From the NCBI GenBank assembly GCA_965202665.1, contig OZ241841.1:576001-640000 (forward strand): 64,000 bases of DNA, written 5' to 3'. Position numbers and translations under genes: made by a program. Source of the DNA: Candidatus Spongiisociaceae bacterium. Its GTDB lineage: Bacteria > Actinomycetota > Acidimicrobiia > Spongiisociales > Spongiisociaceae. This document shows positions 12,257 to 32,670 of this stretch, piece after piece. The notes beneath the pieces are model-generated. The model saw only the letters and a list, made by a program, of their open reading frames with translations. It did no database searches and was not told the origin of the DNA. Position 1 is the stretch's first letter. The number at the start of each line of letters is the position of its first letter.

Positions 12257-12278
12257 TGTCACACCCGCCCCCTACATT
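12257..12278 (+). promoter_or_regulatory. PafBC/RecA-NDp-like promoter of the small ORF-adnAB unit
   Basis: TGTCAC-acccgccccc-TACATT. Confidence 0.7.
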
Positions 12279-12326
12279 GATTTTCACCAAGCGCCGAAAG
12301 CCGGCGCGCTGATGAAAGGAGCAAAC

Positions 12327-12509
12327 ATGTTGACCAGGTTGCCAACCAGGGAGCGTCCCGCAACCGGGCGTCCGGACCCGTTCGCGTTCGCGGCCGCGGA
12401 GGCGGCGTTGCGGGAAGCGGGCATCGGGTTCACCGTGGTGGAAGATTCCGCTTCGACCCGGGAACCCCCGGCTGCGGCGGCCCCCGCCGGACGGCGCATC
12501 GCAGCCTGA
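12327..12509 (+). CDS. Small hypothetical protein (60 aa) preceding adnA
   Basis: AAAGGAG RBS 5 nt before ATG; MLTRLPTRERPATGRPDPFAFAAAEAALREAGIGFTVVED... Confidence 0.5.
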   Translation: MLTRLPTRERPATGRPDPFAFAAAEAALREAGIGFTVVEDSASTREPPAAAAPAGRRIAA

Positions 12510-12602: not shown

Positions 12603-15600
12603 ATGGCTATGACCAACTTTGACGAACAACGCTTGGGGCCGGACCAGTGGTCCGATGCCGTGGCGGAGACGGACGGGCCGCAACTGGTGGTAGCCGGACC
12701 GGGCGCGGGCAAAACCGAATTCTTGGTGCGCCGGGCCGCCCATCTGGTGGACGAAGCCGGCCACCCCCCCGCCGCCCTGCTGGCCCTCACTTTCTCCCGG
12801 CGGGCCGCGGCTGACTGCCGGGAGCGCATCGGACGCGCCCTGCGCAACCCGGCCGGGACCATCGGGGCCTCCACCTTTCATTCGTTCTTCTACCGGGTGC
12901 TGGAAACCCATGCTCCGGAAGCGCTGGGATGGACCGAACTCCCCTCCATCCTGACCGGCCCCGAACAGATCAACCTGGTTTCCAAACTGCTGGCCGACGG
13001 CCCCGACGCCGACTGGCCGAAAACTTTCCGCTCCTTGTTGGGCACGCGCACTTTCGCCGCCGAGGTGACCGATTTCATCCTGAGGGCCAACGAGCGCCTG
13101 ATCTCCCCCGAAGAGTTGCAGGAGCGGGCCGCCGACCGGGCCGACTGGCGGGCCCTACCCGAATTTCTGCGCCGTTACCGCCGGGCCCTGGCCGAGAAGG
13201 GCCGCATCGACTACGGCACCTTGCAAGCCAAAACCGTGGAAATCCTGGAAAACGAGACGGTCAGGGAAAAGTTGGCCGACCAATATCGTTACCTGCTGGT
13301 GGACGAATACCAGGACACCACCGCCGCTCAAGCCCGGCTGTTGGTTCTGCTCAACGGGGCGCGGGGCAATATCACCGCCGCCGCCGACCCCTACCAGTCC
13401 ATTTACGGGTTCCGGGGCGCGGACCTGCGCAACGTTGTCCGGTTCGCCGATGATTTCCGCCCTCCCGCCGGGGACCCCGTTCGGCGGTGGGTGCTGGACA
13501 CCTCTTTCCGCACCCCGGCCGCCATTCTGGAAGCGGCCGTCGGCTTGACCGCCGGCATCGACCTGCCGGGCGCGGCCGGACCGGTGAAACCCGCCGACCA
13601 TCCAGGCCGGGTGGAGGCCTATGTATTCGACCACCCTTCCCAGGAATCGGAGTGGATCGCCGGCGAAGCGGTGCGCCTGCATTTGGAGGAACAGGTTCCC
13701 TACAGCCGCATGGCGGTTTTGGTCCGCACCAAACAGCGGTTGCTGGTGGAGTTGTCCAGGGCCCTGGAAAGGCGCTCCGTCCCCCATGACCGGCCCGATG
13801 TCCGGTTGGCGGACCACCCGGCGGCCCGCATCATCTTCGACTTGGCCCAGGCGACGGCGGCCGTAAACCCGACCGAGGCGGCCGCCCCCATGCGCCGCCT
13901 GTTGCTCGGAAAACTGTTCCGAATCGGAATAGGCGAATACCGTCGGTTGGAGCGTCGCGCCCTGGCGGAGAACGGGAGCTGGGCGGAGGTGATCCGAAAG
14001 GAACTGCCGTCGGGCGGGGCATTGGCCCGGTTGCTGGAAGACTCCGAATGGGCCAACCGACCGGCGGCGAGCGGCTTCTGGCACGCTTGGACGGAGCTCC
14101 CCCAGTTCGTCCCTTTGGCCTTGGACTCCCGACAAGGCGAATACCGGGCGGCTTGGGCCAGCCTGTCGCAGACGCTCCACCGGGCGATGGAGCGCAATCC
14201 TCGCCTCACCCTGACGGAGTATGCGCGTCTGGCCGACTCGGACGACTTCGAGGCCACGCCCCTGCTGGATTACCGCCCGGAAGGCCGGGACCAGCTGGTT
14301 CTTACCACCCTCCATCAGTCCAAAGGATTGGACTTTGAGGCGGTGTTCATCGCCGACGCGGTGGAGGGCGTTTTTCCCGATCTGCGCCGCCATCAGTCTC
14401 TCCTGCAAGTGGAACGGTTGCACCTGGAACAAAGCGACCGGGAAACCGCCGCCCTGCTCCGCCTGCAGGAGGAAACCCGCTTGGCGTACACCGCTATGAC
14501 CCGGGCCCGCACCCGGGTGGTGTTCACCGCCACCAAAGCCGGGGACGATCTGGAGCAACGCCCGCCCAGCCGCTTCCTCACCAAGGTGGTTCATCCCGCC
14601 CAACCCTCCGCGCCCGATGAACCCGGCGACGGTCAGCCGGTGACCCCCCAGCAGGCCGAAACCTGGCTGCGCGCCGCCCTGTCCGACCCCGGGCGCCCCG
14701 CTCCCCGCAAACTGGCCGCCGCCTATGTGCTGGCCGCCAACCCGCACCCGGATCTGCGCCGCCCCGACCAGTTCGCCATGGTGCGCCCCCCGGGCCCGGA
14801 CCGGGGCCTGGTACCGGAAGAATTTACTTTCTCCCCCACCAACGCCGAGAGCTACGACGCCTGCCCCCGCCGGTTCGTTTTGGAGCGTCTCCTGAAAATG
14901 TCCCTTTCCAAAGACCAGTACGCCGAGTTCGGTTCCCTCATCCACAAAGTGCTGGAACGGGCGGATCGCCGGGCTATGGAGGAAAGCCGGGCTTCCACCC
15001 TGCCGGAGGCCATGGACTTGTTGGAAGAGCATTTTCCCGAATACGATTTTGGTTCCGGCTCTTGGCCGGAAGCTTGGAAAAAACGGGCCCGCACCCTGCT
15101 GGAAAACTATTACGAACACATGGCCCCTCCCGACCCGCCGTTGCTGGTGGAGCACAAGGTGGAAACGGAGTTGGCCGGCATCCGCTGGAAGGGCAGGATC
15201 GATCGTATTCACCGCACCACAAACGGGGCGGCCCTGATCGATTACAAAACCTCCAAAAATCCGCCTTCCAAGAAAGAAGCGGCCGTCTCTTTGCAACTGG
15301 GCTTCTACCGCTTGGCCGCCCGGCGGGATCCAACCCTTGAGGAACTCCTGTCTCGAACTCCCGGCGGCATTTTCGCACCGGAACTTTCCGCCACCTTCTG
15401 GCATCCGCTGACTTTCAACGACCGCAACGAAAGCCGGGCGGTGCTGGATTTCGACCCCGGACAGGACGACGAGGTGCGGCAAAACCTGGAAGAAGCGGCG
15501 GCCGGCGTGCTGGCCGAGGACTGGGGACCGCAACCGGGGGCCCACTGCGGACGGTGCGATGTGCGCATCACCTGCCCGGCGTGGCCGCAAGGCAAGGAGG

Positions 15601-15614
15601 CTTATTCGCCATGA
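12603..15614 (+). CDS. adnA: AdnA-like UvrD helicase-PD-(D/E)XK nuclease subunit
   Basis: AGPGAGKT, LLVDEYQD, QSIYGFRGA, TLHQSKGLDF, C-terminal GRIDRI..LIDYKT..QL..Y nuclease. Confidence 0.85.
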   Translation: MAMTNFDEQRLGPDQWSDAVAETDGPQLVVAGPGAGKTEFLVRRAAHLVDEAGHPPAALLALTFSRRAAADCRERIGRALRNPAGTIGASTFHSFFYRVLETHAPEALGWTELPSILTGPEQINLVSKLLADGPDADWPKTFRSLLGTRTFAAEVTDFILRANERLISPEELQERAADRADWRALPEFLRRYRRALAEKGRIDYGTLQAKTVEILENETVREKLADQYRYLLVDEYQDTTAAQARLLVLLNGARGNITAAADPYQSIYGFRGADLRNVVRFADDFRPPAGDPVRRWVLDTSFRTPAAILEAAVGLTAGIDLPGAAGPVKPADHPGRVEAYVFDHPSQESEWIAGEAVRLHLEEQVPYSRMAVLVRTKQRLLVELSRALERRSVPHDRPDVRLADHPAARIIFDLAQATAAVNPTEAAAPMRRLLLGKLFRIGIGEYRRLERRALAENGSWAEVIRKELPSGGALARLLEDSEWANRPAASGFWHAWTELPQFVPLALDSRQGEYRAAWASLSQTLHRAMERNPRLTLTEYARLADSDDFEATPLLDYRPEGRDQLVLTTLHQSKGLDFEAVFIADAVEGVFPDLRRHQSLLQVERLHLEQSDRETAALLRLQEETRLAYTAMTRARTRVVFTATKAGDDLEQRPPSRFLTKVVHPAQPSAPDEPGDGQPVTPQQAETWLRAALSDPGRPAPRKLAAAYVLAANPHPDLRRPDQFAMVRPPGPDRGLVPEEFTFSPTNAESYDACPRRFVLERLLKMSLSKDQYAEFGSLIHKVLERADRRAMEESRASTLPEAMDLLEEHFPEYDFGSGSWPEAWKKRARTLLENYYEHMAPPDPPLLVEHKVETELAGIRWKGRIDRIHRTTNGAALIDYKTSKNPPSKKEAAVSLQLGFYRLAARRDPTLEELLSRTPGGIFAPELSATFWHPLTFNDRNESRAVLDFDPGQDDEVRQNLEEAAAGVLAEDWGPQPGAHCGRCDVRITCPAWPQGKEAYSP

Positions 15615-18600
15615 ATCACAACCCCGGCTTCGTCCCCTCCCCCGAACAGGCCGACATCCTGGATTACGAGCTGCAGCCGTTGCGGGTGGTGGCCGGGGCG
15701 GGCACCGGCAAGACCACCACCCTGGCCTACCGCATGGCGTCGATGATGGACCGCCACCGGATAGAACCGGAGCAGGTTCTGGGAGTCACGTTCACCAACA
15801 AGGCGGCCTACGAACTTTCCCAACGAGTGGGGGAAATCCTGGCCGCCGGGGAGCCCGACCCGGACCAGGTGGAACGGCGAGTGGAGATTTTCACCTACCA
15901 CGGCTTCGCCCACGACCTGCTGGAAACCTACGGGGCTTTGGCGGGAGTGGAACGCGACGCCCGGATCATCACGCCGGCCGTCTCCCGTGAACTGTTGCGG
16001 CGCAGCGTGCTGGCCGCCGACTTTGATTTCCAGGCGCTGGACATCACCCACCTCCCCACCGTCACCAAAGCCCTGCTGAACCTGGCGGGGGAATGCGCCG
16101 CCAACCTGGTGCGCCCCTCCGACCTGCTGAACGGCCCTCCCGGCGACCCGGCGGCGACGGAAGACGAAACAAGGGCCAAAAGGTCCGAGTTGGCCGCCAT
16201 TCTGCTCACCTACGAGGAGGAAAAACAAAGGCTGAACCTGTTGGACTACGGCGACCTGTTGCGCCGGGCGGTGGATCTGATAGAAAACCATTCGGACATC
16301 GCCGGACGCATCCGGGAGCGCTACCGGTGCGTTCTGCTGGACGAATACCAGGACACCGACCCGGCCCAGCGGCGCCTGTTCAGCCTCCTGTTCGGGGATG
16401 CCGGCCATGGCATCGCGGTCACCTCGGTGGGCGACCCCGACCAGTGCATTTTCGAATGGAGGGGGGCGTCCCGATTCAACTTCGAGGCCTTCGCCGAAGA
16501 TTTTCGCCGCTCGGACGGGTCCCCCGCCGACACCCGCAACCTGTCCATCAACCGCCGTTCCGACCGCCTCATCCTGGATTTGGCCAACCGCATCCGCGGC
16601 AAAATCAAAGAGCGGTCGCCGTCCCAAGACCTGCGACCCCTGCCGGAGGCGGGCGCGGGACGCGTCTACGCCAGCTGGCATCCCGATTTCCGGGCGGAGG
16701 CGCAGGCAGTCGCCGAACAGGCCCGCATGCATAACCAGCAGGGCGTCGCCTGGTCGGAGATGGCGGTGCTGTTTCGTAAAAACAAGGATATGGAGGCGGT
16801 GCGCCTCGCTTTGGAGGCCAACGGCGTCCCCTATCAGATGGCCGATCTGGGCGGTTTGCTGAAAGTGCCGGAAGTGGTGGAAACGGTGGCCTGGCTGCGA
16901 CTGTTGTCCGACCCGGAGGACGGGCCGGCCCTGGCCCGCCTCCTGCTCGGATCGCGTTTCCGCCTGGGGCTGGCCGACCTGCAACCTTTGACGGAATGGG
17001 CCGGGGGGCAGTTAAAAAACCGCGGCGACCGGGGCCCGGCCGCCCAGATTGAGGCCCTGGATCATTTGGACGAGGTGGAAATCTCCGAAGAGGCCGCCCG
17101 CCGTCTGGAAGAATTTCGCGTGTTGCACGATCGGTTGCTGGTGGAGGCGCAGTCCGCTTCGCTGTCGGAGCTGACCAGGGCGGTGCTGACCGAAACCGGC
17201 GCCTGGCAGGAAATCGATTCTCTTCCCGGCCACGCCCGGCTCACCGCCCGCCTCAACCTCTACTATCTCTTGGACCTGACCGAGCAGTGGGCCCCCTTGG
17301 AGGGCAGGCGTTCGCTGACCGGTTTCCTGGAGCATCTCAAGATTTTGGAGGACACCCCCCAAGAGGAACCGGATGCGGCCCGCATCAGCGCCGAAGAAGC
17401 GGTGACCCTGCTCACCGTCCACCGCGCGAAAGGCCTGGAGTGGGACGTGGTGTTCCTGCCCGCTCTCTACAAGGGCAATTTCCCCACCCAGCCCAGGGCC
17501 CTGCTGGACCCGGCCCGCCATCACTACACCCTCCCCTATGAGTCGCTGGTGGACCCCGGGCCGCGGGAGCAAATCGGATCGGAGATCGACGAGGAGGCGA
17601 GAAAAGAGTGGGGGCGGGAGAAGCATTACGACCAGGAATGGCGGTTGGCCTATGTGGCGACCACCCGCGCCCGGAAAGCCCTGCATCTGAGCGGGGCCTG
17701 CTGGTATGAGCTGTCCAACTCGCCCGAACCCAAAAAACGGGTGGACAAACCAAGCGAGTTGCTGGAGATGTCCCGGGACTTGCCCGGGGCGGAAGTCCCG
17801 GTGTGGAGCGACCCGCCCCCGGAGCGTCCGGAAAGCCTGCAACCGGCCATGGCGGAGCGCGCCCCGGACCCGGATTTGGGGGTGACATGGGATGAGGCGT
17901 TGCGGCGAACCTTGGCCGACCCGTCTTGGACGGAGCGCAAAGCCGAAGAACTGGGGGTGCGCGGGTCCTACGATAAGGCGGTGGAGGAGATGAACCAGGT
18001 TCTGTTTTCCCTGCCCGACCCGGCGGAGCCCGATCCGGAGGATGATACGACCCGGACGTCGGTGACCGCCCTAGTCGTCTACGCCGACTGCCCCAAACGG
18101 TTCTTCTGGTCGGAGGTGGACCGGCTACCCCGCAAACCCCCCGGCCCGGGCCTCCGGCGGGGCCTGCAACTGCACCGTCGCATAGAACTGTTCAACCGGG
18201 GGAATATCCCGTTCGAGGAGCTGAGCGAAAACCTATACGACCGGGCCCCGGACGAGGAGCAAGTAACAACCCCCGCCGCCCTGCCCGGAAAGAAACGTTC
18301 CGGATGGGAGGCTTTCCAAGAATCCCCATACGCCGAGCGGACCCCGTCGGCGGTGGAAAGCCTATTTGAGTTTCGAATTTCCCCCGAGGCGTGGATCCGC
18401 GGCCGGGTGGACGCCATCTACCCGCTAGACGGCGGCGGCTGGGAAATAGTGGACTGGAAGTTAGGCGGACCCTCCACTCGCCAATCAGCCCTGATACAAC
18501 TCCAGGCCTACGCCCTAGCCGCCAAAGCGGGCGCCCTGGGCCACCCGGTCCCCGACCAGTTGCAAGTAAGTTTCGTATACCTGGGCGCCGGCCCGCAGGT

Positions 18601-18784
18601 AGTAACCCACCAAGTGGACGAACCGTGGCTAGCCGAAGCCCGCACCCGCCTAGAAGGGTTGATGGCGAACATCCGCTCCGAACAGTTCGACCCCGCCCCC
18701 TCCCCCGCCTGCCGCACCTGCGACTTCCAAAAGTTCTGCCCCGAAGGCCAAGCCTTCCTATCCGCCGACGCCGACTCTAAATAA
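15611..18784 (+). CDS. adnB: AdnB-like UvrD helicase-PD-(D/E)XK nuclease subunit
   Basis: ATG overlaps the adnA stop; AGAGTGKTT, VLLDEYQD, TVHRAKGLEWD, GRVDAIY..IVDWK..QLQAY. Confidence 0.85.
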   Translation: MNHNPGFVPSPEQADILDYELQPLRVVAGAGTGKTTTLAYRMASMMDRHRIEPEQVLGVTFTNKAAYELSQRVGEILAAGEPDPDQVERRVEIFTYHGFAHDLLETYGALAGVERDARIITPAVSRELLRRSVLAADFDFQALDITHLPTVTKALLNLAGECAANLVRPSDLLNGPPGDPAATEDETRAKRSELAAILLTYEEEKQRLNLLDYGDLLRRAVDLIENHSDIAGRIRERYRCVLLDEYQDTDPAQRRLFSLLFGDAGHGIAVTSVGDPDQCIFEWRGASRFNFEAFAEDFRRSDGSPADTRNLSINRRSDRLILDLANRIRGKIKERSPSQDLRPLPEAGAGRVYASWHPDFRAEAQAVAEQARMHNQQGVAWSEMAVLFRKNKDMEAVRLALEANGVPYQMADLGGLLKVPEVVETVAWLRLLSDPEDGPALARLLLGSRFRLGLADLQPLTEWAGGQLKNRGDRGPAAQIEALDHLDEVEISEEAARRLEEFRVLHDRLLVEAQSASLSELTRAVLTETGAWQEIDSLPGHARLTARLNLYYLLDLTEQWAPLEGRRSLTGFLEHLKILEDTPQEEPDAARISAEEAVTLLTVHRAKGLEWDVVFLPALYKGNFPTQPRALLDPARHHYTLPYESLVDPGPREQIGSEIDEEARKEWGREKHYDQEWRLAYVATTRARKALHLSGACWYELSNSPEPKKRVDKPSELLEMSRDLPGAEVPVWSDPPPERPESLQPAMAERAPDPDLGVTWDEALRRTLADPSWTERKAEELGVRGSYDKAVEEMNQVLFSLPDPAEPDPEDDTTRTSVTALVVYADCPKRFFWSEVDRLPRKPPGPGLRRGLQLHRRIELFNRGNIPFEELSENLYDRAPDEEQVTTPAALPGKKRSGWEAFQESPYAERTPSAVESLFEFRISPEAWIRGRVDAIYPLDGGGWEIVDWKLGGPSTRQSALIQLQAYALAAKAGALGHPVPDQLQVSFVYLGAGPQVVTHQVDEPWLAEARTRLEGLMANIRSEQFDPAPSPACRTCDFQKFCPEGQAFLSADADSK

Positions 18785-18797
18785 TCTGGGAAACCAC

Positions 18798-21350
18798 CTA
18801 CTCGTCCAATTCCGCTAATGCCGATGAAAATTCCTCCTCGCTGAAAACCATCCGGAACACCCCCTTCGCTGGACCCCCCCGTACCGTCATTGTGCCATAA
18901 TTGAATGCCTCTTCCAATGCCTCTAATACCCGGCGTTTATAATCAGTATCATCACTACCTCGCATATGCTCCCCTTTTGTCTCATACACAAATATACTGG
19001 GTTTGCCATCATCTTCTCCAGACATAGCGATAAAATCGGGTAAGATTCTCCCTTGCTTCCAACCTCTCAGATAGTAATCACCCTTCTGACCTGTTGCTAC
19101 TCTATGCCACCAACGCAATGCTTTTTGCTCATCTAAATAACGGGCGAAATTCTGTTCCAATTTGGAGTCAAAATCACGAGCAAAAACCGGTTCAAACAAG
19201 CTCAGCTGTAGAGATTCTCCATATCTTTTGTGTAATATTGGTTCATCAGGACTTATGGAGAGTTCAAAACTATCAACTAAACGATAATTGGGCTGACCTG
19301 TCTCTAAATCAAAACGAATTTCTTTCCTTTGTAGTTTATTTACAAAAACTTCCTGAGCTTGCTTATTCAATTTTTCAGATACTTGTTTCCTTAAAATCTG
19401 CGACAAATCTGAACGACGGTCGTAGATTATTTCATTACGATCTTCTGTATTTTCAACTGGATATGAGTAGATCAGTTGCCTGGCTAAACGCGAGGCTTGC
19501 CAAGGATTAGGTACTATATCAGATAAATGACGAGCAAACCAAGATACTTGAATAGATTTGTCTATATGTATTAATTTTTCATTGTATATAGGTTCATATT
19601 CTCCTACATCGACCATAGCACTCTGTTGTCTTACTTTATTAGACAACATATAATTAGGAGGATCAATTTCTATTGAATCCCAATCAACGCTTGGTAAAAT
19701 ATGACGTTGGTAATCTAATTCTTCCCAACCATTGCAACTCGTATGAAGCACCTTAGGAAGAAATATAGTTTGATCACGAAATGGAACACGCCTCACTACC
19801 TTTACTTTCTCCATCTCTAGATCAGAGAAAGCGACCTCCTCTGCTAGGCCTGTAAGTCCCTCTTTTTCCAATCCATTTTTTACCTGCTTTACTACGGTTC
19901 CCACCTCAACATTATGGCAATAAACATAACACTGGTTTAGTAACTCTTGATCTGTAAGGTTTGCATGAGGTTGACGCATAACTCTCCCCACTAATTGAGT
20001 AATAGCAATCTGAGCTTTGGTGTTGTCTAACATTACTAGTATATATGCAAAGGGGCAATCCCAACCTTCCATCAAAGCTGACTTGGTAATGATCCATTGT
20101 ATCGGCGAAAATTCTGACAGAAGATTTTCATTACCTAACTCATCTAATTCCGATGATTTGACTGCAACTTGTTCAGGCGAAATACCCAAATTATGAGTAA
20201 GGTATTCTCTAACATCTTCCGCATGTATATACTCGCCATCTCGTTGATCTTTACCTGTACGTTCTACTCGCACTACTGCAATAGGTCTTATATACCTGCC
20301 CGTATTCATCTGAAGGGATTGCGCTGCTATGCTCAGCTGTTGCAGTTGTTCTTGCGCTTTTGTCAAAGTGTAGTGCCATTCCGTATTGGTATATGATGTA
20401 ATATTTATAGGTACTTTTATCATCTCCGCCTTCTTTAGCTCCATTCCGGTTATGTCTACCAGCAGGTTACTGATTCCTCGATTCGGAGTAGCTGACAACT
20501 CAATCACTAAACTGGGATCGAGTCGATTAACCGTTTCAACAAACTCTTCATTGGTAGCCTTGCGTTTACCATAAGCCTTATGTGCTTCATCTAAGATCAC
20601 CACCGGACGTAGTATTTTCAACACATTAAACAAACTATGTTTTACCGAACCGCCACTACTTAAATCCAAATCCGGGTACTGATTGCGTAAGCGGGCATCG
20701 CCAAACAGGTCATCGCCGTCTGGAAAAAAGGAAGGATAACGTCCCGAATCACGAAATATTCTCAGAAAATCTCTCCCTTTTCTGCGATTGGCAGCAGGTA
20801 ACATCAAAAGCATAATACACATATAGTGCTCTACATCCGCACTCGTAAACAGATTATCCTTTTCCAATAATTTCACTCTACCGCCACTAGCCCGTTCCAA
20901 AGTTTGTCGATAAGGATGTTCCCTATCTTTGAGTGCAATCTTCGTTTGTTCATATATGGACTTCGTAGGTACTATCCATAATGTAAAGTCAGTATCTCTA
21001 TCATCTTCTAGCCGCTGTAAATGATTTAGCCGTTCCAAAACAGATGCCGCCAACAATGTTTTACCACCGCCGGTCGGTACTTTGAAGCAGACATGCGGTA
21101 TTGGTCGATTTGCTCCATCGGTTCGCTTAACATAATCACCTGCGCTCTTAGCAATGTAACCTGACTCAACAAATTTCCGCCAAGCCCTTTGAGGATAATG
21201 GCGAACTTCTTCGCTTAAATATTCTTCACCCACAACACCTTGATCCACACGCTCCATCAAATCTTTGTAGGCGTGGAAAGCCTCGACCAGTGCTTCGTGC
21301 CATTGCACAAAAGTATCAAGGGCCTGCACCTGATATTCTTTCAATTCCAT
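18798..21350 (-). CDS. res: Type III restriction enzyme Res subunit (SF2 helicase/nuclease)
   Basis: KVPTGGGKT, ILDEAH, LSATP, LMEGWDCP, QLVGRVMR, C-terminal PDFIA..YETKG; AT-rich relative to flanks. Confidence 0.88.
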   Translation of the reverse strand: MELKEYQVQALDTFVQWHEALVEAFHAYKDLMERVDQGVVGEEYLSEEVRHYPQRAWRKFVESGYIAKSAGDYVKRTDGANRPIPHVCFKVPTGGGKTLLAASVLERLNHLQRLEDDRDTDFTLWIVPTKSIYEQTKIALKDREHPYRQTLERASGGRVKLLEKDNLFTSADVEHYMCIMLLMLPAANRRKGRDFLRIFRDSGRYPSFFPDGDDLFGDARLRNQYPDLDLSSGGSVKHSLFNVLKILRPVVILDEAHKAYGKRKATNEEFVETVNRLDPSLVIELSATPNRGISNLLVDITGMELKKAEMIKVPINITSYTNTEWHYTLTKAQEQLQQLSIAAQSLQMNTGRYIRPIAVVRVERTGKDQRDGEYIHAEDVREYLTHNLGISPEQVAVKSSELDELGNENLLSEFSPIQWIITKSALMEGWDCPFAYILVMLDNTKAQIAITQLVGRVMRQPHANLTDQELLNQCYVYCHNVEVGTVVKQVKNGLEKEGLTGLAEEVAFSDLEMEKVKVVRRVPFRDQTIFLPKVLHTSCNGWEELDYQRHILPSVDWDSIEIDPPNYMLSNKVRQQSAMVDVGEYEPIYNEKLIHIDKSIQVSWFARHLSDIVPNPWQASRLARQLIYSYPVENTEDRNEIIYDRRSDLSQILRKQVSEKLNKQAQEVFVNKLQRKEIRFDLETGQPNYRLVDSFELSISPDEPILHKRYGESLQLSLFEPVFARDFDSKLEQNFARYLDEQKALRWWHRVATGQKGDYYLRGWKQGRILPDFIAMSGEDDGKPSIFVYETKGEHMRGSDDTDYKRRVLEALEEAFNYGTMTVRGGPAKGVFRMVFSEEEFSSALAELDE

Positions 21351-21355
21351 ATTTA

Positions 21356-23085
21356 TTATCCTTTCTTACTAGGTAAGTGTATCTCATATGGTATTTGGCA
21401 AAATGCTATACCAAGATCACTTAAAAATCGTTGGCCCATATATTTACCGGGCGCAAAAACAATCGCCTTTCTATCTTTGCTTCTATTGCGCTTGCCGATA
21501 CGGACCGCATGTTCTTCTTTGAATATAGAGTCAGGACTTTTCAGCCATTCATGAGAAGGCCGATAAAACAAATAATAATCTCGTTCGTCATCACTATAAA
21601 ATAAGAAGTCCTCATTTCTGGGTGACAAATCATTATAGTTAGACGAAACACCGGAAGCCGTATACAAAATGTAGGCAGCTAAGGCTGGGTATTCCGGCAA
21701 CAATTCGCCGTTTAACATTTCCTCAATTTCGATAGGATCTCCTAGCGTGCAATACGTGAAAGATCCACCTAAACCTTCTGATAATTGTTTATTCTCGGCA
21801 TCCGGAATACCAGCAATCGCCCGACGGATTCTTTCGGCAGTAATTTCATTAGCATAATTTTCGCATTCCACAAGAATAAATTGGCGACTATCATTATTTT
21901 CTTTATTCAATTGTAAAACCGCATGAGCAGTAGTACCGCTACCAGCGAAAGAATCAAGTATTATATCCTTGGAGTTTGGAGCGCCAATTTGCAACAAGTC
22001 ATACATCAACGTTATCGCTTTAGGATATGGAAATGGTATAGATGCATCAGGTATCATATCTTGCAGTGTCACCCCTCCGGCACGGCTTCCGTACTCCGGC
22101 TTATAAAAAACAGTCTTTGGTTTCTCTGTTGGTATGTCCCAAAGCAAAGGGCGTTGCTTCGACTTTATTATGATACTACCATCCTTTCGACGTCCAATAA
22201 CTATTTCAGATGGGTTACTGCGTATCTTATTTTTACCCCATCTCCATATAGCCTTTTCCTTATTTCTAACCTTAGGATAAACTGCTGTATACGGGCCGCC
22301 ATCAGTTGGTTCTTTATCGTCATCCGTAATAACAAAATTACCATCTGGGTCAACAAATATTGGATAGTCCAAAGATTTAGAGTAAGATAAACTCCCTCTT
22401 TGTAGCTGTTCAAGTTTATAATAACCGACTTCGTCTTTATGCCATTCTGAGTGAATAATAGCTTCGTCAACTTCAAAGGACCCTAAAACGGCTTTATTAT
22501 GTATTTTGGCATACGCTAGACAATATTCGTGAGCACCCGCAAAACCAAACTGATCGCTACTGCCCGCAAGATTGGAAACTACAGCTATGCAGGTGATAAA
22601 GTTATCTGCGCCAAAAATTTCGTCCATCATCATTCGGAGATGGTGCTGTTCATTGTCATCAATCGAAACGAAAATGACGCCCTCGTCGGATAAAAGTTCG
22701 CGTAGCAAATGCAAACGAGGCCACATCATGCATAACCATTTATCATGTCGCTCCAAATCCTCACCGTCTACCGGAGCTACTTGTTCGAGCCATTCCTGCA
22801 TCTGAGTACTGTTCACACTGTCGTTATAAACCCAGTCTTCCTTACCCGTGTTATACGGTGGATCAATGTAAATGCATTTAACCCTACCGGCATACCGAGG
22901 CAACAACGCCTTCAGTGCGTGAAGATTGTCGCCTTGGATAATGAGGTTATCGTCAGCCGGGGGGGGGGGGGGGGCGAGTCGCTGGATGGTACGGATTTGG
23001 CCCGGTCAGGCACCAGCGGACGATAGGGCACCGTCAGGTGGTGAGCGTAAATGTACTGCTTGCCCTTGAAATCCAAGGTCGGCAT
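21356..23085 (-). CDS. mod: Type III R-M Mod methyltransferase, frameshifted at a C16 tract (OFF as assembled)
   Basis: 5' frame MPTLDFKGKQYIYAHHLTVPYRPL..., then C16, then a shifted frame ADDNLIIQGDNLHALKALLPRYAGRVKCIYIDPPYN...LDSFAGSGTT; one extra C restores a 576-aa ORF. Confidence 0.88.
22959..22974. repeat. G16/C16 homopolymer inside the mod 5' region
   Basis: 16 consecutive G on the + strand. Confidence 0.95.
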
Positions 23086-23682: not shown

Positions 23683-23967
23683 AGAAATTGTCGCACCCCC
23701 CTATTACGTTGGGAGGTATGAAGCGTATTGCTAATTCCGAGCGGTTGCCGCAGGCGGCTGAACGCGTCGGCGAGGGTGCTGCTACGGGCGGAGAGAATTT
23801 GTCACAGCCCCCGGTTACGTTGGGAAATATGAAGCACATAGCTAATTCCGAGCGGTCACCGCAGGTTGCTGAGCGCGTCTACGCGGGCGTTGCGACGGGT
23901 GGGGAGAATTTGTCACAGCCGCCAGTTACGTTGGGAAATATGAAGCGTATTGCTAATTCCGAACGGC
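23683..23967 (+). repeat. 111-bp tandem repeat (about 2.6 copies), each with a promoter motif and ATG
   Basis: Units start at 23683, 23794, 23905; TGTC(G/A)C-N10-TACGTT at 23689, 23800, 23911; ATGAAGC at 23718, 23829, 23940. Confidence 0.92.
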
Positions 23968-25217
23968 TTCGGGCCGCCGACGAGCAGTTCGGGGCTTGGT
24001 TGGGCATCCTGGGGGAAGAAGCCGCCAATGCCGGGTCTCGGGCTGAGTTGGAGGATGTGGCGAGGGCGGTGAAGCGGGCCAAGTCCCAATTGGCCGCCTT
24101 GGAAACCACTATTGCTTTGCGGTTGTCCCGGGCGGAGGGGAAGCGGGAGGCGGCTGAGATTTTGCGGGATCAGATGGGCATGACCTCCCATCAAGCCAAA
24201 CATCTCACCAAAGTGTCGGAGGGGTTGGCGGAGATGCCCAATACGCGGGCCAAGCTGGCGGCGGGGGAAATCACCTTGGAGCACGCCTCCTCCCTGACCA
24301 ACGCCGCTCAGGAGTGCGGGGCGCGGCGGGTGGACCAGGACAAGGGCCTGTTGGGGGAGGCGGTTGTTTCCAACCCGGACGGGTTTCGCAAGAAGGCCCG
24401 GGAATGGACTTCCGCTAATAGCCGGGACCGGGAAGAAGAGTCTTTGCGGCGGCAACGTGGGCGGCGTAAGGCTTATATGTTTTGGGACCCGGCCAAAGAC
24501 ATGGGGGTGTTGCATGCTGAGTTGGACCGGATCGCTTTTGGGCAGGTGCGGCAGGCTTTGGACCTGGGAGCGGACCGGTTGCGGCGGGATGATTCTGGCC
24601 GCGGGGTTCCTCCCGATGAGGTTCGTTCCAACGAGCAACGACGGGCGGATGCTTTGTTTGAGCTTTTGACCGGTCGTGATTCTGAAACTTTTCAGCCGCT
24701 TCCCGAGGCGGGGACTCCGTCGGGTAAGCCTTCTACGCAGCTGGTGGTGGTGGCTGATATTGGGGTTCTGGACGGCTCCCGGCCGGAGGGGCGGTGCGAG
24801 GTTTTGGGGAGCGGGCCGGTGCCGCCCTCTGTTCTGGGGCGGCTCTCGTCGGATACCGCGCTTTCCGGGATTATTTTCGGGGGGAAAGGACGGGTGCTGT
24901 GGCTGGGGCGCAACCAACGTCTGGCAAACGCCGCTCAGCGGATGGCAGCCGCGGTGCGGGACGGGGGGTGCGTACGATGCGACATTTCCACCCACCAAAC
25001 CCAGTTGCACCATGTTTGGGACTGGTACGACGGCGGCCCCACCGACATCGACAACCTGGCGTCCCTCTGCGGGTCCCACCATCGGCGCTTGCAAGAACGC
25101 AACCTGGAACTTTTCCAGCAAGACGGCAGGTGGAAAACCCGGCCCCGTACCGGAGCCGCCCCGCCGTCGCCCCGAACCGTCAAACCCCCCGCCCGGGCCG
25201 GGCCCTCCGGCGCGTAA
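23718..25217 (+). CDS. DUF222/HNH endonuclease (13E12-repeat-like)
   Basis: QRRADALFEL, LWLGRNQRLANAAQRMAAAVRDGGCVRC, LHHVWDWYDGGPTDIDNLASLCGSHHR; alternative in-frame starts at 23829 and 23940. Confidence 0.9.
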   Translation: MKRIANSERLPQAAERVGEGAATGGENLSQPPVTLGNMKHIANSERSPQVAERVYAGVATGGENLSQPPVTLGNMKRIANSERLRAADEQFGAWLGILGEEAANAGSRAELEDVARAVKRAKSQLAALETTIALRLSRAEGKREAAEILRDQMGMTSHQAKHLTKVSEGLAEMPNTRAKLAAGEITLEHASSLTNAAQECGARRVDQDKGLLGEAVVSNPDGFRKKAREWTSANSRDREEESLRRQRGRRKAYMFWDPAKDMGVLHAELDRIAFGQVRQALDLGADRLRRDDSGRGVPPDEVRSNEQRRADALFELLTGRDSETFQPLPEAGTPSGKPSTQLVVVADIGVLDGSRPEGRCEVLGSGPVPPSVLGRLSSDTALSGIIFGGKGRVLWLGRNQRLANAAQRMAAAVRDGGCVRCDISTHQTQLHHVWDWYDGGPTDIDNLASLCGSHHRRLQERNLELFQQDGRWKTRPRTGAAPPSPRTVKPPARAGPSGA

Positions 25218-25272: not shown

Positions 25273-25369
25273 TAGCATAGAAAATGCTTGTTGTCGGCAA
25301 TGCTCTGATCAGCGGCTTGGCCTGGTCGTGTTTTCGGGGTGCGGAGGGTTACTTCGAGAGGAGATTGCG

Positions 25370-28300
25370 GTGAGAAGGGGTACGAAAGGCGGGGCGGCGG
25401 CCCGGGTGGGGTTGGCCGCGGTGTTGGCGGCGGCGATGTTAGCGCCGGAGGGGTTGGGGGAGGCGGCGGCGCAGACGACGCCGGCGGCCTTGCCTGCTAT
25501 TACGTTGAGTGTTACCGAGTTGAGCGATACCTACGGGGAGGATCCCCGGTGGACGCCGGCAACGTCGATTGCAGAAGTCGGGCGGGGGTGGGTGCGGGTG
25601 GTGGCGACGGCGTCGGCGGCTGTAGCGGAGCAGGTGAGCCTGTCGGTGACGGTCGGGGGTGCGGGGAGCACCGCGGGCAAAGGGCCGAGGTCGCGGTCTC
25701 TTGCTCGTGCTCAGAAGGCTGATTACCATACGTCGGCGGACAGCGTAACGGTGACGATTGCCGCCGGGGAAACGTCGGGTTCGTCGGGTGATATCGTGAT
25801 TACGACTCGGGAAGATAATCTGGTGGAAGGGGATGAGACGATCCGGTTCACGGCGGAGGCGCCGGCCGGATATCCGACGATCCCGGCGGCGGAACTGGTG
25901 TTGCTCGACGAAGACGATGATATCCAACTGCTGGTGAGCCCGGAGACGGTGGTGGAGGGAACGGCGGAGACGGTTACGGTTACCGCCGGGTTCCGGAGTG
26001 GAAGGTCGTCGGCGCTGACCTCTGACACGGATGTGACGGTTACGGTGGCTTCGGGCGACGGTCCCAACGGGGCGACTTTGGGATCGTCCGGTGATTTCAC
26101 CACCGACGCGAAGGGGAATCAGGTTACGGTTACCATCCCGGCGGGGAAGGTGGGCGGCAACGCAACGTTCACGCTGACCGCATCCTCGGATGACGCCGAC
26201 GAGGGCGTAGAGAAGGGGAATCTGACCGGAACCGCTTCAGTAGGCGGTTCGGCGGTAACCGTGTCAGGAAACAGTATCGGAATTGTCGACCCCTCCCTCG
26301 GCGTGGGTTTGACCGTGGACGCCGACGCGGACACGCCGGGGATACAGTCCTCGTTGGGTGAAGACGCCGGTAAGGTGACTGTTCGGGTTACCGCGTCCCT
26401 GGCGTCGGGGACCGCGCCGTCCGGAGGTTTGACGATCGGGATAAGCGCGTGGGGCGTCCACCCCGCCCGGGGGAGGCTGAACGAGAGGGGCGGCCGCAGC
26501 CGTGTGTACAAAGGGCCTTCTTCTTTCAGGGCGGGGGATGACTATTGGGTTATCTACCCGTCGGATCAGTCCCCGCGGCCGCCGCGCGGTGACTACCTGG
26601 CGATCCGGATCCCCCAGGGTAAAAGTTCCGGGTCGGCTGACATAACCGTGGCGATGAACGACGACCAGGTGGCCGAAGACGAAGAAACGTTGCTGTTCAC
26701 GGGCGGCGACGTTTCCGCCGGGGGCAACACCTACAGGATAGTCGCCGCGCGGGTGAGCCTCATTGACAACGACGGCAACGACCCGACGCCCGACGCCGAA
26801 AGTATCGGCGTAAAGCCGTCTATTGTGTTGAGTTTTACCAATGGGCAGTCGGCGGTTGCGTCGGTTGATGAGCGGGCGGGGCGGCAGCAGGTTCGGGTGG
26901 TGGCGACGGCGTCGGCGGCTGTTACGGAGCAGGTGAGCCTGTCGGTGGCGGTCGGGGGTGCGGGGAGTACCGCGGGCAAGGGTAGAGGGAAGGGTTATGA
27001 TTATGTGACGTCGGCGGACAGCGCAACGGTGACGATAGCCGCCGGGGAAACGTCTGGTTCGTCGGGTGATATTTTTATCACGCCTGGGGATGATTATCTG
27101 GTGGAGGGGGATGAGACGATCCGGTTCACGGCGGAGGCGCCGGCCGGGTATCAGGCGATCCCGGCGGCGGAACTGGTGTTGCTCGACGAAGATGATGATA
27201 TCGGCCTGCGGGTGAGCCCGACGACGGTGGCGGAGGGCACGAGTGAGACGGTGACTGTAACCACCCGATTCTTCGGGGCGTCGTCGGAGCTGACCTCCGA
27301 CACGGATGTGACAGTTACCGTGGCTTCGGGCGACGGTCCCAACGCGGCGACTTTAGGATCGTCCGGTGATTTCACCACCGACGCAAAGGGGAATCAGTTT
27401 ACGGTTACCATCCCGGCGGGGAAGGTGGGCGGCAACGCAACGTTCACGCTGACCGCAGCCGCGGATAACGCCGACGAGAACGTAGAGAAGGGGAAGCTGA
27501 CCGGAACCGCTTCAGTGGGCGGTTCGGCGGTAACCGTGGAAGGAACCCGTATCAGAATTGTCGACCCCTCCCTCAGTGTGAAATTGACCGTGGACGCCGA
27601 CGCGGACGCGCCGGGGATACAGTCCTCGTTGGGTGAGGACGCCGGTGAGGTGACTGTTCGGGTTACTGCGTCCCTGGCGTCGGGGACCGCGCCGTCCGGT
27701 GGTCTGACGATCGGGGTGAAGGCGTTTGGCGTCGGCGCCAACCAAAGGTTGAAAGGGTACAAGGGGCCTTCTTCTTTCAGGGCGGGGGATGACATATGGA
27801 TTATCTTCCCGTCGGGTCAATCCCCGCCACCGCCGCGCGGTTACGACCTGGCGATCCGGATCCCCCAGGGCAAGAGTTCCGGGTCGGCTGACATGACCGT
27901 GGTGATGCACGACGACCAGGTGGCCGAAGACGAGGAAACGTTGCGGTTCGAGGGGCGCGACGTTGCCGCCGGGGGCAACATCTACAGGATAGTCGCCGCG
28001 CAGGTGAGGCTCATCGACAACGACGGCAACGACCCGCCGCCCGCCGCCGAAAGTATCGGCGTAAAGCCGTCTATTGTATTGAGTCTTACCAATACGTCGA
28101 TTGAAGAGGCGGCCGGTGGGCGGGTACGGGTGGTGGCGACGGCGTCGGCGGCTGTCGCGGAACAGGTGAGCGTGTCGGTGACGGTCGGGGGTGCGGGGAG
28201 TACCGCGGGCAAAGGGTCGAGAGCTGATTATCGGACGACGGCGGACAGCGTAACGGTGACTATTGCCGCCGGGGAAACTTCTGGTTCGTCGGGCAACATC

Positions 28301-30082
28301 TGGATTGACACTTGGGAGGATTTCCTGGTGGAAGGGAATGAAACGATCCGGTTCACTGCGGAGACGCCGGCCGGGTATCAGACCATCCCGGCGACGGAAC
28401 TGGTGGTGATCGACGAAGAAACCGATATCAGCCTGTTCGTGAGCCCGGTGACGGTGGTGGAGGGAACGAGTGAGACGGTGACTGTGACCGCCCAATTCTT
28501 CGGGGCGTCGTCGGTGCTGACCTCCGACACGGATGTGACGGTTACGGTGGCTTCGGGCGACGGTCCCAACGGGGCGACTTTAGGATCGTCCGGTGATTTC
28601 ACCACCGACGCGAAAGGGAATCAGTTTACGGTTACCATCCCGGCGGGGAGGATAGGCGGCAGTGCTGCGTTCACGCTGACCGCGGTCGCCGACGCCGTCG
28701 ATGAGAGATTCGAGCAGGGGAAGCTGACTGGAACCGCTTCGGTGGTCGGTTCGGCGGTCGCCGTTGTAAATGAGAACCTCGAGCAAGGAGAGCGGACCGG
28801 GTCGGTTTCAGTGGGCGGTTCGGCGGTAACCGTGTTAGGGAGGGGAATAGGAATCGTAGACGCCCGCTTCGGCGTGGGTTTGACCGTGGACGCCGACACG
28901 GACACGCCGGGGATACAATCCTCGCTGAACGAGGACGCCGGTGAGGTGACTGCTCGGGTTACCGCTTCCCTGGCATCGGGGACCGCGCCGTCCGGGGGTC
29001 TGACGATCGGGATGAGCGTGTGGGGCGTCGGCGCCACAGGGAGGCTGAATGAGAGAGGCGGCGGCAGCCCTCGTGTATATGAAGGGCCTTCTTCTTTTGA
29101 AGCGTGGGATGATTATTGGATTATCTACCCGTCGGGTCAGTCGCCGCCGCCGCCGTTCGGTCACTACCTGGCAATCCGGATCCCCGAGGGCAAGAGTTCC
29201 GGGTCGGCTGAGCTGACCGTGGTGATGAACGACGACCAGGTGGCCGAAGGCGAGGAAGGGTTGCTGTTCGTGGGCGGTGACGTTACCGCCGGAGGCAACA
29301 CCTACAAGACGGTCGCCGCGCAGGTGAGACTCATCGACAACGACGGCAACCCCCCCGCGCCCAACGTCGGCGCACCCCCGGTCACCAACAACGGCAACGG
29401 CGGCGCGCCCCCGGTCACCAACGGCAACGGCGGTACGCCCCCGGTCACCAACAGCGACGGCGGTACGCCCCCGCCCGACGCCGACGGCGCCCCCGAATCC
29501 CCGGCCTCGGCGTGCGTCGGACGGTTCTGCGACGAAGACGACAGCGTCCACCAAGCCAACACCGAACGCATCGCCCAATGGCGGATCACCCTCGGATGCA
29601 GCGCCGCCGACCCCACCCTGTTCTGCCCGGGCGCCGACATCACCCGACGGCAGATGGCCGCCTTCTTGTACCGGGCGGTGTCGCAACGCTGGACCATCCA
29701 GGCCCCCGCCCGGGCGGAGCTGTCCGACGTAGCCGACGACGCCTGGTTCCGCACCTACGCCGACTGGGTGATCTCGGTAGACGCCTTCGCCGCCCCCGGA
29801 GGCGTGTTCAACCCGGGCGGGGTGGTAACCCGGGCGGATATGGCCGTCATGATGATCGCCGCGTTCCCCCACCTGGAAGCAGTCGCCGAACCAGAAGGCC
29901 TCTTCCAGGACGTCCAGGACGCCGACCCCGCAGTAGCACGGGCAATCGAGGGCTTGTACAGGGCGGGCGTTACCCGAGGGTGCTCCACCGGACCGCTCAA
30001 CTACTGCCCCGACCAGCCCGTAACCCGGGCGCAGATGGCGTCTTACTTCGTCAGAGCCATCGACCGAGCCCCCGCCGCCTGA
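25370..30082 (+). CDS. Large secreted surface protein with three ~410-430 aa repeats (Calx-beta/Ig-like) and a C-terminal SLH-like anchor
   Basis: GAGGAG RBS + GTG, signal-peptide-like N-terminus, repeated DxLVEGDETIRFT and DDQVAEDEETL motifs, GRFCDED...ITRRQMAAFLYRA...VTRAQMASYFVRA. Confidence 0.85.
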   Translation: MRRGTKGGAAARVGLAAVLAAAMLAPEGLGEAAAQTTPAALPAITLSVTELSDTYGEDPRWTPATSIAEVGRGWVRVVATASAAVAEQVSLSVTVGGAGSTAGKGPRSRSLARAQKADYHTSADSVTVTIAAGETSGSSGDIVITTREDNLVEGDETIRFTAEAPAGYPTIPAAELVLLDEDDDIQLLVSPETVVEGTAETVTVTAGFRSGRSSALTSDTDVTVTVASGDGPNGATLGSSGDFTTDAKGNQVTVTIPAGKVGGNATFTLTASSDDADEGVEKGNLTGTASVGGSAVTVSGNSIGIVDPSLGVGLTVDADADTPGIQSSLGEDAGKVTVRVTASLASGTAPSGGLTIGISAWGVHPARGRLNERGGRSRVYKGPSSFRAGDDYWVIYPSDQSPRPPRGDYLAIRIPQGKSSGSADITVAMNDDQVAEDEETLLFTGGDVSAGGNTYRIVAARVSLIDNDGNDPTPDAESIGVKPSIVLSFTNGQSAVASVDERAGRQQVRVVATASAAVTEQVSLSVAVGGAGSTAGKGRGKGYDYVTSADSATVTIAAGETSGSSGDIFITPGDDYLVEGDETIRFTAEAPAGYQAIPAAELVLLDEDDDIGLRVSPTTVAEGTSETVTVTTRFFGASSELTSDTDVTVTVASGDGPNAATLGSSGDFTTDAKGNQFTVTIPAGKVGGNATFTLTAAADNADENVEKGKLTGTASVGGSAVTVEGTRIRIVDPSLSVKLTVDADADAPGIQSSLGEDAGEVTVRVTASLASGTAPSGGLTIGVKAFGVGANQRLKGYKGPSSFRAGDDIWIIFPSGQSPPPPRGYDLAIRIPQGKSSGSADMTVVMHDDQVAEDEETLRFEGRDVAAGGNIYRIVAAQVRLIDNDGNDPPPAAESIGVKPSIVLSLTNTSIEEAAGGRVRVVATASAAVAEQVSVSVTVGGAGSTAGKGSRADYRTTADSVTVTIAAGETSGSSGNIWIDTWEDFLVEGNETIRFTAETPAGYQTIPATELVVIDEETDISLFVSPVTVVEGTSETVTVTAQFFGASSVLTSDTDVTVTVASGDGPNGATLGSSGDFTTDAKGNQFTVTIPAGRIGGSAAFTLTAVADAVDERFEQGKLTGTASVVGSAVAVVNENLEQGERTGSVSVGGSAVTVLGRGIGIVDARFGVGLTVDADTDTPGIQSSLNEDAGEVTARVTASLASGTAPSGGLTIGMSVWGVGATGRLNERGGGSPRVYEGPSSFEAWDDYWIIYPSGQSPPPPFGHYLAIRIPEGKSSGSAELTVVMNDDQVAEGEEGLLFVGGDVTAGGNTYKTVAAQVRLIDNDGNPPAPNVGAPPVTNNGNGGAPPVTNGNGGTPPVTNSDGGTPPPDADGAPESPASACVGRFCDEDDSVHQANTERIAQWRITLGCSAADPTLFCPGADITRRQMAAFLYRAVSQRWTIQAPARAELSDVADDAWFRTYADWVISVDAFAAPGGVFNPGGVVTRADMAVMMIAAFPHLEAVAEPEGLFQDVQDADPAVARAIEGLYRAGVTRGCSTGPLNYCPDQPVTRAQMASYFVRAIDRAPAA
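29369..29472 (+). repeat. ~30-bp coding minisatellite (GxPPVTNxxG) in the surface-protein linker
   Basis: CCCCCGGTCACCAAC repeated three times plus a partial unit. Confidence 0.8.
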
Positions 30083-31523: not shown

Positions 31524-32409
31524 CGTTTTGCTGGGGATGATAGGGTTTGATCGTGATGTGGCGGATGTGGTGTTGGGCGAGCAGGGAAGCGAATAGGCGG
31601 CTGTGGGGGTAGTTGCGGTGGTTGTCGGTCATGATCTCCGCTATGTGGGTGGTGTCTAGTTGGTGGAAGTGGTTGAGGGCGCGGGCGGTGAACGCGGCGA
31701 CGGTGGTTCCCTTCTCGTCTGATAGCGTTTCGGAGTAGGCGAGGCGGGTGTAGTCATCCATGACGGAGTGCGCAAAAGTCCATCCCGCTCCTCCGGCGGG
31801 GGCGTTGCCCCGGCCGTGTACTCTCCATCCCCCGCCGGGGGGTATGGAAGAAAGCTTCTTAACATCCATATGCAGCAACTCACCAGGCCGTTCCCGTTCA
31901 TACCGCACCACCGGCCCGGGAGGGGACTTGAGCGGCTCGCCGGTCAGCAGGTCGCATTCCCACAGACGCAACATCCCGCGGCGGCGGAGGATACGGCTGA
32001 TCGTCCGCTCCGGCACCCCCGCAAACACCGACAACCGAGCCGGCCCCGCCCGCAACAGCCGCCGCGCCCGCAGCACCAGCTCTTCCACCTCCGGGCTGGT
32101 ACGCATAGGGGAACAACGCGGCCGCGACGACCCGTCTTCCAAACCGGCCTCGCCTTCCTCCCGGTAACGGCGCACCCACTTGGACACGCACTGCCGGGAC
32201 AGGCCCACACCGCCGAGCCACCCGCGCCACCGGCTCGCCCTCTCTTACCAGCAACACCATCCCCAAACGTCCCAAAGGCGACGACCTCGCGTTACCATGC
32301 ATCCCTGAAGACCTCCTCCCGTGCTATAGGGTGCTTTCACTCCCCATAACACCAGGAGGTCTTCACCTATGCAACAACCAAACCGTCACCAACGTCCTGG
32401 CCAAGTACA
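31524..32409 (-). mobile_element. IS481-family element remnant (frameshifted, 3'-truncated transposase starting at 32302)
   Basis: MHGNAR start, frameshift near 32205, KWVRRYREEG, PGELLHMDVKKL, DDYTRLAY, IMTDN, KPYHPQQN; left end starts TGT at 32409. Confidence 0.85.
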
Positions 32410-32427
32410 CCTAGAGTAGGAAACCGC

Positions 32428-32659
32428 CTGAGATTTTGCAGGATCAGATGGGGATGACTTCCCATCAGGCCGAATATCTCGCCAAAGTGTCGGAAAAGTT
32501 GGCAGAGATGCCCAACACGCGGGCCAAGCTGTCGGCGGGGGCATCACACTGGAACACGTTTCCTCTTTTCCGATTCCGGATGGGTTTCGCAAGAACGGCC
32601 GGGACCGCCGTCGCCCCGAACCAGTAAACCTCCCGCCCGGGCCGGACCCTCCGGCGCGT
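32428..32659 (+). pseudogene. Internally deleted second copy of the DUF222/HNH gene
   Basis: Matches 24154-24295, then 24368-24403, then 25161-25217 (QDQMGMTSHQA..LAEMPNTRAKL). Confidence 0.85.
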
Positions 32660-32670
32660 AACATCGGATT

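Follow-up and report, generated by a model that had tools for sequence, protein, structure and literature searches.

The locus examined here raises the question of why a nuclease gene of a sponge-associated bacterium would carry its promoter and start codon three times over, and whether the repeat serves expression, the protein, or neither. In the window, by which we mean the whole 64-kb (64,000-nt) stretch of DNA that was analyzed, three TGTCRC-N10-TACGTT-N7-ATG units recur every 111 nt, each sharing the frame of a DUF222-HNH gene (Table 1). All three starts read ATGAAGC (23718, 23829, and 23940), and a single frame is open until the stop at 25217.

Layout of the array and the gene behind it

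The repeat was recovered by TRF with a period of 111, 2.6 copies, 83% matches, and a score of 386, which makes it the top-scoring array of the window. Moreover, the promoter motif occurs five times in the window against 0.72 expected, a count that was reached in 0 of 100 shuffles. As the third unit is the DUF222-HNH gene's own promoter and start, with only ~62 nt that align well, there are two extra copies rather than three. Here, the gene-proximal promoter (23905-23966) is the counterpart of the single promoter found in other DUF222 paralogues, while the 27 codons that follow the first ATG (23718) have the 5' end of the DUF222-HNH gene as their source. An assembly artefact was ruled out, with all three units being spanned by single contigs from each of the runs X1 (possibly the source sample), X7 (labelled marine metagenome), and X11 (labelled sponge metagenome). 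The original prediction of three in-frame 111-bp promoter-ATG units is thus confirmed by the coordinates, TRF, and the bridging contigs, none of which holds a single unit. The unit count was three in each of these three contigs, bearing in mind that contigs drop rare variants. Identity between units is 77-86%, and hence not the near-identity by which a fast-slipping VNTR would be recognized.

Table 1. Coordinates of the array and of the gene that follows it, as positions in the window
Feature	Position	Strand	Details
Unit 1 (111 nt)	23683-23793	+	TGTCGC -26 element 23689-23694; -10 TACGTT 23705-23710; ATG 23718
Unit 2 (111 nt)	23794-23904	+	TGTCAC -26 element 23800-23805; -10 TACGTT 23816-23821; ATG 23829
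G-rich tail of unit 2	23897-23904	+	X11 contig variant record, depth 16.5
Gene-proximal promoter and start	23905-23966	+	TGTCAC 23911-23916; TACGTT 23927-23932; ATG 23940
74-codon in-frame extension (2 x 37 codons)	23718-23939	+	Weakly constrained
DUF222-HNH (13E12-type) gene	23940-25217	+	425 aa from ATG3, 499 from ATG1
DUF222 domain (PF02720)	24066-24962	+	E 5e-13, above cut-off
HNH domain (PF01844)	24969-25091	+	E 8e-7; intact CxxC...HH...N...CxxHH pattern

Its domains place the gene in the 13E12/DUF222 family (DUF222 and 13E12 being one family; PMC13157036). In agreement, the Atlas clusters closest to the protein are HNH/DUF222. The genome (G000; 2.77 Mb, one contig) holds eight dispersed DUF222 copies and one fragment, and the pattern of catalytic and zinc residues of the HNH domain is complete in all eight paralogues. 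In line with lineage-specific sites, none of five relatives has a DUF222 gene at the site adjoining dtd. A sequence search of the PDB gave a single weak match, the HNH domain of IscB (E 0.15), but the protein is not an IscB, because the NCBIfam IscB model scores 22 bits, far under the cut-off of 175. Likewise, a mosaic origin of the gene's 3' tail was not supported, as a similar tail is found in the sister-species orthologue. A single-sequence AlphaFold model (mean pLDDT 38) was unusable and says nothing on the 74-codon extension.

As for the surroundings, directly after the nuclease gene comes a 1584-aa repetitive surface protein with a C-terminal SLH domain (window 25328-30082, plus strand), and further on there is an internally deleted DUF222 remnant (window ~32382-32720, plus strand), which has the nuclease gene's 3' end and downstream flank and stands in front of another long ORF. 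On the other side, a type III R-M methylase gene (window 21356-23085, minus strand) is split by a G16 run (22959-22974) ~110 nt after its start; it is out of frame as assembled, and the X1 contig is one G shorter. This methylase looks like a phase-variable mod gene, with its res gene next to it at 18798-21350.

A probable PafBC-type promoter and leaderless start

To begin with the candidate activator, the genome has a pafB-pafC-tatAC arrangement, in which two adjoining WYL genes are followed by tat genes. One WYL gene shows the PafC HTH. The other matches Mycobacterium smegmatis PafB (7P5X chain, E 9e-28), and R46 and R50, the residues with which PafB reads the GTC triplet (PMC8635444), are conserved in it. 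The published consensus of such sigma-adaptation promoters is tGTCgg-N10-tANNNT in a -26/-10 architecture without a -35 (PMC8635444). Our units resemble it in the GTC core, the 10-nt spacer, the SigA -10, the lack of a -35, and a host pafBC with R46/R50, but differ in their local consensus, TGTC(A/G)C, and in a host that is an uncultured actinobacterium far from mycobacteria. Moreover, they occur in stacks of as many as four in this genome, and of as many as six elsewhere.

Spacing lends weight to this resemblance. Over the whole genome, TGTCRC-Nn-TANNNT is found 61 times at n=10, as opposed to 3-14 times at each of nine other spacings (6 to 15). The motif precedes two recA copies, ruvC, ssb, recR, lhr, and dnaG (genes named by eye from their N-termini), lies upstream of an adnAB-like pair in the window, and stands before all eight DUF222 paralogues and many homologues across the order. 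Inside the array, no sigma-70 -35/-10 pair was found. A LexA operator was tried as a conserved part of the unit and rejected, with no box of fewer than two mismatches near any of the eight paralogue starts. As regards the start codon, 20 of the 61 strict motifs have an ATG precisely 7 nt downstream of the -10, where ~0.7 would be expected, and in the DUF222 paralogues it is at +7 in seven of eight and at +10 in the remaining one. Taken together, it is well supported at the sequence level that each unit is likely a PafBC-activated promoter, and both the PafBC-type promoter and the leaderless start that had been predicted gain from these data, the former by the presence of pafBC with R46/R50 kept, the enrichment at spacing 10, and the motif at repair genes, and the latter by the fixed ATG position.

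Several related observations were made along the way. The two recA genes (132501-133547 and 1276072-1277112, minus strand) are full-length and nearly identical, each with a PafBC-type motif, and a perfect SOS box lies at 133846, upstream of the first copy. In addition to the PafBC motif, the DUF222 paralogues at 456128, 1196733, 2445012, and 2532880 show by eye a second, sigma-70-like promoter (TTGACA-N17-TAGAAT) ~80-90 nt upstream of it, which is absent from the arrayed subfamily. Within the window, 12257-12506 (plus strand) contains a PafBC-type motif and, behind it, a 65-aa ORF that matched nothing in Pfam or NCBIfam; after this ORF comes the adnAB-like pair (12603-18784).

A promoter of this kind on 13E12 genes is, however, already known, a point missed by the original prediction. 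In M. tuberculosis, the 13E12 genes have been presented as insertion elements induced by DNA damage, their promoter being of the RecA-NDp (PafBC) type, and LexA binds six 13E12 loci (PMC3381160). Our genome is like that of M. tuberculosis in having multi-copy DUF222 (plus HNH) genes of the 13E12/REP13E12 type (PF02720) with a PafBC-type promoter; it is unlike it in that promoter and start are tandemly multiplied, with no LexA box found at the starts. Two further papers (PMC5656591 and PMC8151990) added nothing on the promoter of the DUF222 family.

Descent and recurrence of the stacked units

The original prediction called for a comparison with the other DUF222 paralogues of the genome. Along with the motif before all eight of them, this revealed homologous unit arrays in front of two more, paralogue B with four units (ATG spacings of 111, 110, and 111) and paralogue C with two (111). 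When the gene in the window is taken as A, units pair better across loci (A1-B2 85%, A2-B3 86%, and B1-C1 86% identity) than within this locus (A1-A2 80%), which shows that the array travelled along with the gene. In the sister species (G001), the orthologue of B is found at the same site with three in-frame units spaced 153 and 144. The array has thus been retained across a split at ~71% protein identity, complete with motifs, ATGs, and an open frame, while the paralogue-C site of the sister species is occupied by a copy of a different DUF222 subfamily. A DNA search with the array among 40 relatives gave a match in the sister species only. Moreover, the tail of each unit is a diverged copy of the first 21-27 codons of the DUF222-HNH gene. 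From these sequence comparisons, it is shown that the units derive from the gene's own start, and that the array is older than the split from the sister species and has been carried to new sites with the gene. Local duplication as such is frequent here, the genome having 122 local repeat clusters that contain eight of the 61 motifs, from which it follows that the lineage duplicates readily.

To see how far such arrays extend, one genome per species (185,579 in total) was scanned for two promoter-N7-ATG units 100-130 nt apart; the scan covers this single period range and likely favours long-read assemblies. This returned 61 loci, of which 31, from 18 genomes, belong to the Actinomycetota. Foremost among these are Ca. 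Poriferisodalis and other Acidimicrobiia records (24 of 31), with the remainder in Tessaracoccus, two mycobacteria, Nitriliruptoraceae, and one unplaced bin. In 30 of the 31 cases the units precede DUF222 genes (25 by our own profile, five by Pfam), the exception (L159) showing the unit pattern of the nurA array (see below); the other 30 scan loci gave no DUF222 match. As a denominator, which could be had for this genome only, DUF222 genes make up seven of the 18 loci with such a promoter. A wide-gap search for tandem motifs found them in one of 28 other genomes of the family, again the sister species. In random samples, a motif pair was present in eight of 400 genomes of the class and three of 400 of the phylum, and none of the 12 class and phylum loci with a motif pair showed a unit-length repeat, so arrays are rare overall. 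A metagenome scan for the unit motif gave 0 matches.

At the last junction of the 30 DUF222 arrays, the frame is continuous and open in 16, not so in 12, and unclear in two. In a quick tree of 53 proteins, from which L150, L174, L172, L187, L057, and distant homologues were left out, arrays are spread over many clades. Counted by clade, the junction is in frame in six of 11-13 (p 0.12-0.24), or in nine of 16 if the clades are split finely (p 0.05), an in-frame excess of doubtful significance. Two arrays (L163 and L176) have a multiple-of-three spacing although they are out of frame with the gene, and slippage in triplet-like GC repeats can also give multiples of three. What is new is neither the promoter nor its presence on this family, but the recurrence of stacked promoter-start units before DUF222 genes; stacked PafBC promoter-start units on DUF222 genes were not found described in open-access full text. 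The original prediction had treated a single locus, and had not recognized the array as an inherited, recurrent feature of the DUF222-HNH family.

The sister species also carries promoter-plus-stub pieces upstream of six of the other 14 DUF222 copies fetched. None of ten such stubs, which come from another DUF222 subfamily, is both in frame and open. Some are closer to other paralogues than to their own neighbour, with L104u2/u3 at 87-88% against 66-67% and L106u1 at 80% against 65%, and two single-promoter genes start like upstream stubs, as if an array had collapsed. Trains of five and six motifs likewise occur in this species, before nurA and a recQ-like gene. In the former (L110:1698-4195), five PafBC-type motifs lie in ~380-nt repeats before the NurA-domain gene; the NurA homologue of G000 (942632-943630) has no motif or repeat nearby. 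In the latter (L111), six motif-bearing repeats stand in front of the homologue of a recQ-like gene of G000. In G000, right after DUF222 paralogue F (2341569-2343474, minus strand), a PafBC motif and a recQ-like stub are followed by ~450 nt of unrelated DNA, a mutated motif, and the frameshifted recQ-like gene. Behind one further DUF222 copy of G001 (L115:1546-3744), the 3' end of this copy is repeated in tandem several times, at ~380 nt per repeat. DUF222 copies are also often placed directly behind one methylase-like gene family or other restriction-modification genes (named by eye); such neighbours, including a fragment without Pfam match, were noted at L008:2917-3891 and, in G001, near 1000098, 1125889, 2505112, and 2564736.

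Reading frame and what the array may do

Across the gene body, A, B, and C differ at 4-5% of non-degenerate sites and 17-22% of fourfold sites. The units behave otherwise. In three unit pairs of this genome, 23 of 150 non-degenerate and 8 of 43 fourfold sites differ (p 0.64), which amounts to 15% replacement against 19% silent change, as compared with about 5% and 19% for the gene. Nine unit pairs from other in-frame arrays gave 56/458 against 28/141 (p 0.027), and all in-frame arrays pooled gave 79/608 against 36/184 (p 0.03); the out-of-frame control (11/247 against 3/86) contained few changes only. Purifying selection on the repeat peptide comparable to that on the gene was thus not found in these comparisons, and the peptide is under weak coding constraint at most. 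In-frame stops are absent from all eight upstream units (P ~0.09 by simulation of neutral change). Of the 11 columns that make up the motif core and ATG, one is variable, as opposed to 31 of the 65 free columns (p 0.02), albeit gene conversion from the proximal promoter could likewise yield such conservation.

Frame is not kept in all alleles either, as three of the ten readable ones are frameshifted, each at a G-run. At this locus, three of four alleles are in frame (G000/X1, X7, and, over the covered part, X4), while the X11 strain has an extra G at 23900, by which ATG1 and ATG2 lose the frame of the gene. Paralogue B lacks one base before ATG3 in G000/X1 and before ATG4 in X7 (an allele assigned to B by sequence signature), and is in frame in the covered part of X4 and X11; X6 had no coverage of the B array. 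Paralogue C and the G001 orthologue of B are in frame. The indels listed for the gene body, by comparison, occur as compensating pairs.

How, then, might such an array act? Leaderless mRNAs begin with the ATG itself, and translation starts at that first triplet. An old tandem duplication multiplied the gene's 5' end, comprising the promoter motif, the ATG, and some 21-27 codons, and we propose that under DNA damage PafBC-RNA polymerase would fire at up to three stacked promoters, with the leaderless mRNA from each unit starting at its own ATG. By eye, the G-rich stretches lie too near the downstream ATGs for good Shine-Dalgarno function, and, as no well-spaced Shine-Dalgarno is found there, in-frame read-through would be the only way for upstream transcripts to yield nuclease. 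The product would then carry a tolerated 37- or 74-residue tail, and more units with an open frame would mean more nuclease. Accordingly worded, our preferred reading, to which we assign a probability of roughly 0.55, is that the array is a loosely kept expression-dosage repeat in which a unit counts only while in frame. Copy-number tuning, as it was originally suggested, may play a part: units number two, three, and four between paralogues, but three in every bridging contig at this locus. There is a precedent in the variable-number tandem promoter repeats of M. tuberculosis dop, lpdA, and cysG, for which a role in tuning expression has been suggested (PMC12817950). The mycobacterial repeats are located in front of the start and differ within populations, whereas each unit here is a whole promoter with ATG and coding stub, is ~80% identical to its neighbours and hence old, and differs in number between paralogues but, in the bridging contigs, not at this locus.

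The explanation that survives best next to this dosage repeat is that the array is neutral debris of tandem duplication and gene conversion within a repeat family prone to recombination, whose units may fire but whose number and frame are irrelevant. We consider this rather unlikely, yet worth serious attention. It would account for the near-neutral unit codons in this genome, the frameshift alleles, the out-of-frame stubs of the sister species and the 12 of 30 arrays elsewhere that are out of frame, and it sits well with the many unrelated local duplications and the similar trains before nurA and the recQ-like gene; 13E12 loci have, in addition, been reported as hotspots of conversion and recombination (PMC13061034 and PMC13157036). 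Less easily reconciled with mere debris are the retention of motifs, ATGs, and open frame across the ~71% identity split, the pooled signal of weak coding constraint, and motif columns that vary less than the spacer columns.

Alternatively, the units could be scars of mobility, wherein promoter-plus-stub pieces are repeatedly left behind when the nuclease cuts close to the element's 5' end or when a new copy inserts into one already present. The near-exclusive association with DUF222 genes in many clades would fit, as would unit starts that in many cases lie just a few nt from the -26 element, sister-species stubs that are closer to other paralogues, and the different subfamily copy at the paralogue-C site. 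Even so, we regard mobility scars as improbable, for the freshest cases look like plain tandem duplications (L150 is 100% identical, with a 2-nt microhomology by eye), the right-hand breakpoints differ widely from case to case, this gene has no displaced full-length 3' part behind it, arrays are also found before nurA and recQ-like genes, and no terminal repeats were seen.

That the upstream units instead act as a damper, lowering nuclease output by promoter occlusion, PafBC titration, or dead-frame ribosomes and so shielding the host from a toxic nuclease, strikes us as very improbable: out-of-frame arrays do persist in several clades, and another brake could be useful given that the eight starts lack a LexA box of fewer than two mismatches, unlike in M. 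tuberculosis (PMC3381160), but in-frame arrays are at least as common, and promoter tandem repeats usually raise expression (PMC12817950). Equally hard to credit are three N-terminal forms with distinct roles encoded by the 37-residue repeats, since the open frame of this locus, of paralogue C, and of the sister species, together with the stop-free units, is offset by replacement changes about as frequent as silent ones, by the frameshift alleles and out-of-frame arrays, by unit sequences that look unrelated by eye in other clades, and by most paralogues having one start. The meaningful isoforms of the original prediction are therefore weak, and the array likely raises or varies nuclease output rather than providing functionally distinct protein forms.

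In a broader and more speculative joint reading, which we think unlikely as a whole, DUF222-HNH genes would be selfish elements plugged into the host's PafBC damage response that amplify it by stacked modules, with unit number and G-run slips serving as a nuclease-dose dial, stubs as a store from which alternative N-termini could be drawn, and the stacks as scars of spreading.

DUF222/13E12 genes are widespread in actinobacteria, though we know of no defined function and no mode of spread for them. Among genes with such promoters, this family is almost alone in gaining stacked promoter-start modules. In a leaderless gene, duplicating the promoter also duplicates the start codon, and therefore frame likely decides whether an extra promoter counts. 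Arrays of this kind mislead gene callers on the start, and in assemblies from short reads they probably end up broken or collapsed. For the family itself, the stacked modules offer a handle on DUF222 regulation, and perhaps on its mobility.
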